Shown here: one piece after another, positions 7,385 through 26,403 of the stretch
Numbering within the stretch: the stretch's first letter is position 1
Layout: every line of letters begins with the position of its first letter
From: Acidimicrobiales bacterium
Lineage (GTDB): Bacteria; Actinomycetota; Acidimicrobiia; Acidimicrobiales; CATQHL01
Direction: 5' to 3'
DNA: 64,000 nucleotides
Assembly (NCBI GenBank): GCA_965116465.1
Contig: OZ220687.1
Location: forward strand, 1,604,596 to 1,668,595
Notes under the pieces: generated by a model
The model's input: the letters and a program-made list of their open reading frames with translations, nothing else
What the model was told of the DNA's origin: nothing
Database searches by the model: none
Program-made: the position numbers and the translations under genes

Positions 7385-7388
7385 GGGC

Positions 7389-23458: not shown

Positions 23459-23462
<4 letters not shown>
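21912..23462 (-). CDS. nuoM: NADH-quinone oxidoreductase subunit M (operon 2)
   Basis: 516-aa NuoM-like protein (WLPDAHTDAPT) with a 4-nt overlap with nuoL. Confidence 0.9.
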
Positions 23463-25339
<1,877 letters not shown>

Positions 25340-25351
25340 CGCCGCCCACCC

Positions 25352-25654
25352 TCAGCCGCGCAGCACCGAGACGTCGTCCGCGGTGGCACCGGAGCGGCGG
25401 CGCATGATCGCCACCACGATCGCCAGCCCCACCACCACCTCGGCGGCCGCCACCACCAGGACGAAGAACACCGACACCTGGCCGCCCAGATCGGTGAGGT
25501 CGCGGCCGAACGCCACGAACGTGAGGTTGACCGCGTTCAGCATGAGCTCCACGCACATGAACATGATCAGCGGGTTGCGCCGCACCAGCAGGCCCACCGC
25601 GCCGAGCGCGAAGACCACGGCGGCGAGTGCCAGATACCAGCCGGTGCCGACCAT
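25352..25654 (-). CDS. nuoK: NADH-quinone oxidoreductase subunit K (operon 2)
   Basis: 100-aa, 3-TM NuoK-like protein. Its ATG overlaps the TAA of an upstream mini-ORF (TAATG). Confidence 0.9.
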   Translation of the reverse strand: MVGTGWYLALAAVVFALGAVGLLVRRNPLIMFMCVELMLNAVNLTFVAFGRDLTDLGGQVSVFFVLVVAAAEVVVGLAIVVAIMRRRSGATADDVSVLRG

Positions 25655-25663
25655 TATCGGCGC

Positions 25664-25750
25664 GCCTCCGGGGCCATTGTCAGCGTGCCTGCGGGGCCAT
25701 TGTCAGCGTGCCTCCGGGGCCATGGTCAGCCTGCCTCCGGGGGCCATCAG
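25664..25750. repeat. 23-bp tandem repeat, 3 full copies plus 1 partial copy, in the nuoJ-nuoK intergenic region
   Basis: Plus-strand copies are 25664-25686 gcctccggggccattgtcagcgt, 25687-25709 (1 mismatch), 25710-25732 (2 mismatches) and 25733-25750 (partial, 1-nt insertion). Confidence 0.9.
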
Positions 25751-26403
25751 CCGACCGCCTCGGGGGTCGGGTCCGGGACGGACTCGTCGTCGGTGCCGCC
25801 GGAGCCCCGGTGGCGCGCCAGGACCACCGCCCCCACGACGGCGACGGTCAGCAGCAGACCGGTCAACTGGAAGGCCCAGACGTAGTCGGTGAACACCCAC
25901 CAGGCCACCTGGCGGATGTTGGAGATGGGCTCGGGGCCGTCGCAGGCAATGGCCGCCGCCGACCCCTCGAGTGCCTTGGGCACGCCGGTGCAGCTGTCGA
26001 ACTCGGGCGCTACCGCCGCCGGCCGGCCCGTGGCCACCGTGTCACCGCCGAAGCCGCCGGAGCCGGCGGCGATGGCGAACAGCAGCGCCAGGACCAGCAC
26101 GGCCACACCCAGGCCGGCCGCCAGAGGGCGCTGGCCGCCGAGCGGCTCGGTGCGCAGGTTCTCGGCCCGGTCCACCCCCAGGAGCATGATGACGAACAGG
26201 AACAGCACCACGATGGCGCCGGCGTAGACGATCACCTGCACGGCGGCGAGGAACTGCGCGTCCAGCGTCAGGAACAGCACGGCGATGCCGAACAGGGTCG
26301 CCACCAGGGACAGGGCGGCGTGCACCGGGTGGCGGGTCACGATGACCCCGAGCGCGCCACCGATCACGATGGCGGCGCAGACCGCAAAGACTGCGATCTC
26401 CAT
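25747..26403 (-). CDS. nuoJ: NADH-quinone oxidoreductase subunit J (operon 2)
   Basis: ATG at 26403 (residue 51 of the listed ORF) shares 1 nt with the nuoI stop (TGATG) and gives 218 aa starting MEIAVFAVCAAIVIGG. It carries a Cys-containing insert relative to the operon-1 paralog. Confidence 0.85.
   Translation of the reverse strand: MEIAVFAVCAAIVIGGALGVIVTRHPVHAALSLVATLFGIAVLFLTLDAQFLAAVQVIVYAGAIVVLFLFVIMLLGVDRAENLRTEPLGGQRPLAAGLGVAVLVLALLFAIAAGSGGFGGDTVATGRPAAVAPEFDSCTGVPKALEGSAAAIACDGPEPISNIRQVAWWVFTDYVWAFQLTGLLLTVAVVGAVVLARHRGSGGTDDESVPDPTPEAVG

Follow-up and report, generated by a model that had tools for sequence, protein, structure and literature searches.

The nuoJ–nuoK junction

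The window analyzed here is a stretch of 64,000 nt from the genome of an Acidimicrobiales bacterium (GenBank assembly GCA_965116465.1, contig OZ220687.1), and our subject is a short tandem repeat between two genes of a nuo operon on its minus strand, nuoJ and nuoK, which encode subunits of respiratory complex I. The spacer between the two genes is 92 nt long, and the array lies at 25655–25747 as four head-to-tail units of 24, 23, 23, and 23 nt. An earlier note, made from the sequence of the window, had described about four copies of a 23-bp unit filling this spacer, and both our reading of the sequence and Tandem Repeats Finder (TRF) bear this out. Across the 64-kb window, TRF gives a period of 23 at 25651–25747, with 4.2 copies, 89% matches, and a score of 143, the highest among 68 rows. 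A search with the consensus pattern, allowing up to three mismatches, returned three matches, against 0.00 expected from shuffles. The genes, repeat units, and short open reading frames (mini-ORFs) of the locus are the following:

25747–26403, minus strand: nuoJ (NADH-quinone oxidoreductase chain 6), 218 aa; Pfam PF00499, E 8e-40
25750–25766, minus strand: proto-unit, the 3′ end of nuoJ, homologous to the body of the repeat unit; CCCCCGAGGCGGTCGGC
25747–25724, minus strand: unit 1, 24 nt, with one additional C; ATGGCCCCCGGAGGCAGGCTGACC
25723–25701, minus strand: unit 2, 23 nt, the consensus unit; ATGGCCCCGGAGGCACGCTGACA
25700–25678, minus strand: unit 3, 23 nt, with its Shine–Dalgarno (SD) motif weakened to GCAGG; ATGGCCCCGCAGGCACGCTGACA
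25677–25655, minus strand: unit 4, 23 nt; ATGGCCCCGGAGGCGCGCCGATA
25747–25703, minus strand: mini-ORF 1, MAPGGRLTMAPEAR, stop TGA; starts 1 nt inside the nuoJ stop
25700–25680, minus strand: mini-ORF 2, MAPQAR, stop TGA; starts 2 nt past the stop of mini-ORF 1
25677–25654, minus strand: mini-ORF 3, MAPEARR, stop TAA; starts 2 nt past the stop of mini-ORF 2
25352–25654, minus strand: nuoK (chain 4L), 100 aa, ATG at 25654; Pfam PF00420, E 7e-26
23459–25339, minus strand: nuoL, 626 aa, 12 nt downstream of nuoK; Pfam PF00361 and PF00662

The three mini-ORFs, and the overlaps that join them to the two genes, lie exactly where the earlier note had placed them. At the upstream end, the stop of nuoJ (TGA, 25749–25747) has its A in common with the ATG of unit 1, giving TGATG. 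Because unit 1 has an extra base, its own TGA is out of frame and the ORF continues into unit 2. At the downstream end, the TAA of mini-ORF 3 shares its A with the nuoK ATG at 25654, giving TAATG. This second overlap was gained in unit 4 by a change of CTGACA to CCGATA, in which the ancestral TGA became CGA and a new TAA came to overlap the nuoK start, and it reads as a compensated switch of stop position. Traced from nuoJ to nuoK, the distances from each stop to the next start are −1, +2, +2, and −1 nt.

SD-like motifs accompany these hand-overs. GGAGG is found at 25734–25738, 25711–25715, and 25665–25669, GCAGG at 25688–25692, and CGAGG at 25758–25762 within nuoJ, where the terminal codons (...PEAVG) hold it ahead of the first repeat ATG; by computed spacing, each motif lies 10 nt ahead of the next ATG. 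The earlier description of every unit as carrying an ATG, a GGAGG, and a TGA is right about the GGAGG in three of the four units and wrong for unit 3, the exception. The 3′ end of the 16S rRNA in the window's genome reads GGATCACCTCCTTTCT (ending ...CACCUCCUUUCU) and contains the anti-SD sequence CCUCC, and the GGAGG of unit 4 (25665–25669, minus strand), 10 nt upstream of the nuoK ATG, is the likely SD of nuoK.

Other junctions of the same operon are short: −4 nt for nuoH/I, −1 nt for nuoI/J, and +12 nt for nuoK/L. The paralogous nuoJ–nuoK junction of operon 1, also in the window, has a 4-nt spacer (7385–7388, TGA-GCCC-GTG), as had been noted before. In two near-identical contigs (L211 and L212), the nuoJ gene call is likewise 218 aa.

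Origin of the array by duplication of a coupling junction

We extracted the nuoJ–nuoK junction from all genomes having one in the family, which comprises 21 species genomes; of these, 18 belong to the window's genus, where NuoK is 92–99% identical. Six species of the genus and one of a neighboring genus have a spacer of just 2 nt, and the other two species of the neighboring genus have 3 nt. With minor variation, the six unexpanded junctions of the genus read ...GCCCCCGAGGCGGTC TGA GC ATGGTC.... From them comes an ancestral junction, GCC CCC GAG GCG GTC TGA GC ATG, that measures exactly 23 nt and consists of the last five codons of nuoJ (APEAV), the stop, 2 nt, and the nuoK start codon; the GAGG serving nuoK lies within those last five codons. 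The repeat unit (ATG + GCCCCGGAGGCACGCTGACA) aligns base for base with the junctions of loci L014–L016 and L018–L020, and with that of L022 from the neighboring genus. In addition, the proto-unit at the end of nuoJ, which we compared with the ancestral junction GCCCCCGAGGCGGTCTGAGCATG of L014–L020, belongs to the array in a TRF alignment of period 46 (row 25663–25766).

Because the unit equals the 23-nt junction of unexpanded relatives, we read the array as a local tandem duplication of that junction, which is one of the origins that the earlier note had proposed. A dispersed or mobile element is rejected for the 23-nt unit: in the 3.53-Mb single-contig genome, the pattern search (up to three mismatches) found the unit at the nuoJ–nuoK locus only, in the three local copies, and nowhere else. 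The mini-peptides read M-APEAR because the duplication began at a nuoJ codon boundary, so that the copied ATG runs into the copied nuoJ tail and stop.

From sequence comparison, the array is almost certainly a locus-specific minisatellite, or variable-number tandem repeat (VNTR), that arose by tandem duplication of the nuoJ/nuoK translational-coupling junction; this near certainty covers both its origin and its VNTR behavior. The 23 nt were duplicated head to tail in the ancestor of a ten-species clade, and units were later gained and lost, most likely by slipped-strand mispairing or unequal recombination, to give 1 to about 8 copies. A duplication across the gene boundary leaves both genes intact, and each new unit forms a complete small cistron with an ATG, five or six codons, and a stop. 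The stop either precedes the following ATG by 2 nt or overlaps it, and GGAGG lies 10 nt ahead of the same ATG.

Copy number among relatives

Copy number varies widely in the family. There is one unit in G004, the closest sister of the window's genome, and in G010; there are two units in G008, three each in G005, G009, G015, and G017, four each in the window's genome and G016, about 4.6 in G013, and about eight in the 189-nt spacer of contig L211. In a maximum-likelihood tree built on 1.5 kb of nuoK–nuoL DNA, all expanded junctions except that of G013 fall in one ten-species clade with 100/100 support. The unexpanded junctions (2–3-nt spacers) belong to a five-species sister clade, to the basal G011, and to the three species of the other genus. 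Unit tail types are species-specific, and the three units of G015 are identical to one another.

Additional alleles came from contigs of other samples that encode an identical or sister-species NuoK. One of them, L212, matches the window at 297 of 303 positions of nuoK DNA (98%), yet has two units only, which are units 1 and 4 of the window. Further combinations of units occur in L226, L230, L231, and L235. One 73-nt allele is common to eight contigs from different samples, and homologous arrays are present in more than 30 independently assembled contigs of different samples and sources. Among these relatives the copy number ranges from 0 to about 8, and nuoJ and nuoK are intact at every copy number seen. 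The suggestion in the earlier note that strains might differ in copy number has thus been borne out, both between near-identical strains (2 vs. 4 units) and among species (1 to about 8). The array has the properties of a slippage VNTR or minisatellite: its units are arranged head to tail, they resemble one another more within an array than between lineages, and they are gained or lost whole, as in L212, which lacks exactly units 2 and 3. A phase-variable contingency locus was considered and rejected, as the array lies outside both coding sequences and has no promoter-like site.

The nuoJ of G005 (L005, G005:C95) differs from that of all relatives by a 1-nt deletion about 150 nt upstream of the stop (…VVGAG|CWRAT…), probably an assembly error in a metagenome-assembled genome (MAG) that is 74% complete. 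The shifted nuoJ frame passes through the array and still stops at the last TAATG, on the nuoK start.

Conservation of starts, stops, and SD motifs

We traced a relay from the nuoJ stop through to the nuoK ATG in every expanded allele, requiring a start codon −4 to +3 nt from each stop. The relay is unbroken in 21 of the 22 distinct expanded alleles, with hand-overs of −1 to +3 nt, so the start/stop phasing described in the window is kept among its relatives. Composition-matched shuffled spacers have an intact relay in 0.2–8% of trials, and simulated random substitution at d = 0.2 left 5–65% intact for each allele.

As a neutral yardstick we used the fourfold sites of nuoK, whose pairwise difference in the clade is 0.25. 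In the unit next to nuoK, positions 1–16, which contain the ATG, GCCCC, and GGAGG, differ by 0.14 and the 7-nt tail by 0.50, such that the tail changes twice as fast as the fourfold sites. Even so, all 30 distinct 23-nt units have a stop in frame at codon 7 or 8, and shuffled tails keep one in 3.8 of 30 (maximum 12, 2000 trials). The stop takes five forms (TGA + 2 nt, TAG + 2 nt, TAATG, TGATG, and TAGTG), and single arrays, for example L235, mix them. GGAGG is kept in 26 of the 30 units, 10 nt before the next ATG. Insertions and deletions are found mainly in first units, as +1, +2, or +3 nt in the C run, while the first unit of G013 is one base short; the units downstream restore the phase. 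In the alleles compared, the start, the SD motif, and the stop are shown to be conserved, and the peptide and the copy number are not.

The G006 lineage has an unrelated 137-nt sequence at the same junction (L013:1804–1940). This spacer is bridged by one 44-codon ORF, which opens 3 nt past the stop of nuoJ and closes with TGATG, a configuration found in 0.7% of shuffles. The 137-nt spacer also holds a dispersed palindrome resembling repetitive extragenic palindromes (REP) or miniature inverted-repeat transposable elements (MITE), with the core TCGTCATTCCGGCGAAGGCCGGAATCCA. The palindrome has at least 40 sites per genome in G000, G006, G008, and G017 (e.g., G000:C1:2927657–2927710), and its copies also flank several tandem repeats of the window's genome, for example near C1:932448 and C1:176032.

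A proposed relay of re-initiating ribosomes

Termination–reinitiation coupling is thought to secure equal synthesis of the subunits of membrane complexes, and the evidence that natural selection acts on it is mostly statistical. At the nuoJ–nuoK junction, ribosomes that finish nuoJ may re-initiate on the first mini-ORF and be passed from unit to unit until they reach nuoK. The 92 nt would then never be an untranslated gap, which would abolish the coupling and perhaps also expose the mRNA to polarity, and coupling of two complex I subunits needed at 1:1 would survive a 92-nt spacer. Selection would act on the relay, that is, on starts, stops, and SD motifs, and neither on the peptides nor on any one number of copies, which is in itself probably nearly neutral.

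The relay is inferred, and published experiments support it. Termination–reinitiation loses 40–80% of its efficiency at a distance of +14 nt and nearly disappears at +38 nt, coupling needs no more of the upstream gene than its last 15 nt, and tight junctions are enriched among subunits of heteromeric complexes (PMC10666635). Overall, we find it likely, if well short of assured, that the array is a slippage VNTR that is both tolerated and constrained because each copy re-creates the termination–reinitiation signals. We place similar confidence, roughly two in three, in the functional relay itself, an idea of the earlier note that now draws on comparative evidence (intact relays in 21 of 22 alleles, stops in all 30 units, and fast-evolving tails).

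Several points weigh against a relay kept by selection. Units within an array are near-identical, being young or homogenized, and this inflates the apparent conservation of their signals. The alleles are phylogenetically related, so that neither the 21 of 22 nor the 30 of 30 are independent trials. The period, of the form 3n+2, is partly self-healing, since any frame meets a unit stop within three units, and therefore less selection is needed to explain the persistence of the relay. The last unit has its SD motif 10 nt before the nuoK ATG, and nuoK could be initiated de novo without a relay. One expanded allele is broken: L214 (TARA_SAMEA6046707 scaffold_1390362, 842 nt; 336–382) is a decayed two-unit array in which CTG has replaced the second ATG and the first GGAGG is missing, and its first mini-ORF runs for 66 codons out of frame into nuoK. 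It could reflect real decay or a low-coverage error. Finally, a copy of the 137-nt spacer that has diverged by 20% retains an open bridging ORF, though this is a weak test, with a chance retention of 22%.

Alternative explanations

The points above are the strength of the main rival, in which nuoK is initiated independently from the GGAGG of the last unit and the mini-ORFs are inert passengers. The array would be a neutral by-product, a slippage expansion that is tolerated and whose mini-ORFs are not usefully translated, and the conservation of starts and stops would come from recent duplication, homogenization (as the three identical units of G015 might suggest), and a self-correcting period in which all three frames end at a unit stop by construction. 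The broken allele would also fit. What speaks for the relay instead is that the tails have diverged at twice the fourfold-site rate and yet all 30 units have a stop, reached in five ways and in mixed fashion inside single arrays (L235, and unit 4 of the window). Moreover, the 137-nt insertion of unrelated sequence at this site has a single ORF running across its whole length, and drift at d = 0.1–0.3 would break most alleles. We regard the neutral by-product as unlikely, while keeping it as a serious competitor.

Two further explanations give copy number a role of its own. In the simpler one, copy number is an adaptive dial, a heritable and reversible attenuator in which a fraction of ribosomes is lost at each re-initiation step, and strains would use it to adjust the amounts of NuoK and, downstream, of NuoL, NuoM, and NuoN against that of NuoA–J. 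The difference of 2 vs. 4 units between near-identical strains, the overall range of 0 to about 8, and the strong dependence of re-initiation efficiency on junction geometry (PMC10666635) are in keeping with such a dial. However, NuoJ and NuoK are 1:1 subunits of one membrane arm with no obvious gain from underproducing NuoK, copy number is seen to track phylogeny only, and similar arrays at unrelated junctions, in the same genome and in relatives, point to a general mutational process rather than an adaptation of nuo. The earlier note had offered a throttle that sets the NuoJ:NuoK ratio as a variant of the relay, and we found nothing in its support. The dial by itself is thus quite improbable. 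A broader version joins a translational dial, with discrete steps of NuoK-L-M-N per NuoA–J, to junction duplication as a common route of spacer acquisition in the compact, high-GC operons of Actinomycetota. If it were true, only duplications that restore coupling would survive, and such loci would be natural measurements of the strength of selection on coupling. We give this joint reading slightly more credence than the dial by itself, and still hold it to be improbable.

Another kind of role is very unlikely, whether as a structured RNA, a protein-binding iteron array, an internal promoter or terminator, or a source of functional micropeptides. The regular 23-nt spacing and the conserved head of the unit would suit some of these. 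On the other hand, the peptides have 6–8 residues, derive from the nuoJ tail, and vary in length and fusion between alleles, and the conserved positions are exactly the ATG, the GGAGG, and the stop. RNA structure was tried and rejected: folded together with its flanks, the spacer does slightly worse than dinucleotide shuffles (z = +1.0), so that folding of the array, raised in the earlier note, gives no better result than chance. Rfam returned no family match at E ≤ 1, and no promoter-like or terminator-like sites were found at the array.

An assembly artifact, with the array or its copy number produced by a mis-assembled short repeat, is the least credible explanation and can practically be dismissed, for although a 1-nt error of assembly is probable close by in at least one relative MAG (G005), the array is just 93 nt, shorter than ordinary reads, in a single-contig 3.5-Mb assembly, and the homologous arrays of more than 30 independent contigs and the 73-nt allele shared across samples stand against it.

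Comparison with known systems

The closest published analogue is the mycobacterial MIRU. In the portions of the literature cited here, mycobacterial interspersed repetitive units (MIRUs) are described as operon-intergenic repeat units whose short ORFs are coupled to the neighboring genes, for example in senX3-regX3 (Supply et al. 1997, via PMC12548453 and PMC3184786), and as 40–100-bp units at about 40–50 dispersed loci per genome that look like MITE-type insertions with direct repeats (PMC12548453, PMC3184786). Both systems place tandem units between genes of one operon (co-transcription is predicted for nuo), and in both the ends of the unit ORFs overlap or abut the stop and start of the neighbors, here as TGATG on the 5′ side and TAATG on the 3′ side. 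Both also have a tandem copy number that varies between strains, here 2 vs. 4 units. In contrast to the 40–100 bp given in the cited part of PMC3184786, the nuo unit has 23 bp (24 in unit 1), and it occurs at one locus rather than about 40–50. It arose by local duplication, with "empty" sites that contain the 23-nt junction, whereas MIRUs arose by insertion, and its host belongs to the Acidimicrobiia and not to Mycobacterium. The nuo array is closest to a MIRU-VNTR and works like one, without being a member of the family.

The array can also be set beside termination–reinitiation (TeRe) coupling as studied by Huber et al. (2019, 2023; PMC6728339, PMC10666635). Its hand-overs are canonical, either TGATG/TAATG (−1) or +2 nt, and the SD motif for the next start lies inside the preceding ORF, as it does in coupled junctions. 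All hand-overs of the window are within the stop–start distance of about 10 nt (PMC10666635), the unit includes those terminal 15 nt of the upstream gene that were found sufficient for coupling, and nuoJ and nuoK encode subunits of a heteromeric complex, the class enriched in such junctions. The difference is that the nuo array chains three to five junctions through ORFs of 6–14 codons, where TeRe coupling has a single one.

A third parallel is with short "delivery" ORFs and bicistronic designs, in which, according to the cited part of PMC12548453, a non-functional short ORF brings a terminating ribosome to the next start; this is the likely role of the mini-ORFs too. Unlike such ORFs, those of nuo derive from a junction duplication and stand in tandem between two genes of an operon rather than in a 5′ leader. 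In the literature searched, junction duplications of local origin did not turn up for any prokaryote, nor was any such case found for nuo operons. The earlier statement that no equivalent has been described can be kept for nuo operons and must be given up in general, given the mycobacterial MIRU-VNTRs.

Significance of the locus

The locus is a natural allelic series with 0, 1, 2, 3, 4, and about 8 copies of a coupling junction between two 1:1 subunits of complex I. Through this series only the start, the SD motif, and a stop adjoining the next start are conserved, and the stop has been re-invented in five ways, which is direct comparative evidence that selection disfavors leaving the stretch from nuoJ to nuoK untranslated. 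The locus lends itself, as a clean series of natural alleles, to testing serial termination–reinitiation, and it is not a new type of system. It also indicates that a MIRU-like architecture can arise locally without a mobile element, because in a compact operon only duplications that span a gene boundary are tolerable among repeats whose length is not a multiple of three. In practical terms, the array could serve as a VNTR for typing strains of these uncultured, apparently sponge-associated Acidimicrobiia, and the unit is a ready-made 23-nt coupling cassette for synthetic operons.

Similar arrays elsewhere

TRF on the whole genome of the window found about 38 tandem repeats with a period that is not a multiple of three, mostly intergenic. 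A second array of duplicated junctions lies outside the window at G000:C1:2469483–2469709 (plus strand), with 3.8 copies of a 61-nt unit at 91% matches. This unit repeats the end of the upstream gene (its final ~13 codons, ...GLS*), a TGATG overlap, and the first codons of the downstream gene. Every copy contains a mini-ORF of 18 codons (MVVRLVSKSTPRVRTPWD) whose end lies 4 nt ahead of the following ATG, such that the mini-ORFs are chained.

More distant NuoK relatives (at most 83% identity, among them Acidimicrobiia MAGs and Ca. Poriferisocius) provided 160 further loci, where the nuoJ–nuoK junction is mostly −4 or −1 nt. Two of these distant relatives have duplications of their own. In L048 (Ca. 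Poriferisocius sp., NZ_OZ241836.1), from a related family with a NuoK 77% identical, two nuo junctions are duplicated, at 1117–1222 and 1492–1604. At its nuoJ–nuoK junction, a duplication of 73 nt is spanned by an ORF of 23 codons with TGATG at its end. Its nuoK–nuoL junction has 3.0 copies of a 38-nt unit (96%) in which the four final codons of nuoK and a TAG are followed by 7 nt and then by the six initial codons of nuoL; the mini-ORFs there terminate in ATGA overlaps. In L153 (Ga0126310_10100607), from a distant lineage with a NuoK 74% identical, the junction just ahead of nuoK (at 1186) holds a single 23-nt unit, GTGGCTCCCGAGGTGGCGCGCTA, with a TAGTG overlap on either side. The unit resembles the 3′ end of its own nuoJ, which suggests an independent duplication of the same length.

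Other repeats of the window's genome lie near gene starts. About 6 kb past the end of the window, at G000:C1:1674408–1674727 (minus strand), 3.2 copies of a 101-nt unit (94%) duplicate the leader and the first ~17 codons of a gene beginning VVLDVRLLRNEMERV, a seryl-tRNA-synthetase-like N-terminus, and place two truncated decoy starts ahead of the real gene. Two shorter arrays are intergenic between co-directional genes: one with 8.7 copies of a 17-nt unit (CGTCGTCCCGGCCTGAT, 96%) at G000:C1:2078162–2078309 (plus strand), and one with 4.1 copies of a 14-nt unit (GGACGGCCCGGTGA) at G000:C1:2986498–2986554 (plus strand), which has a GTGA in each unit and lies directly upstream of a gene start.

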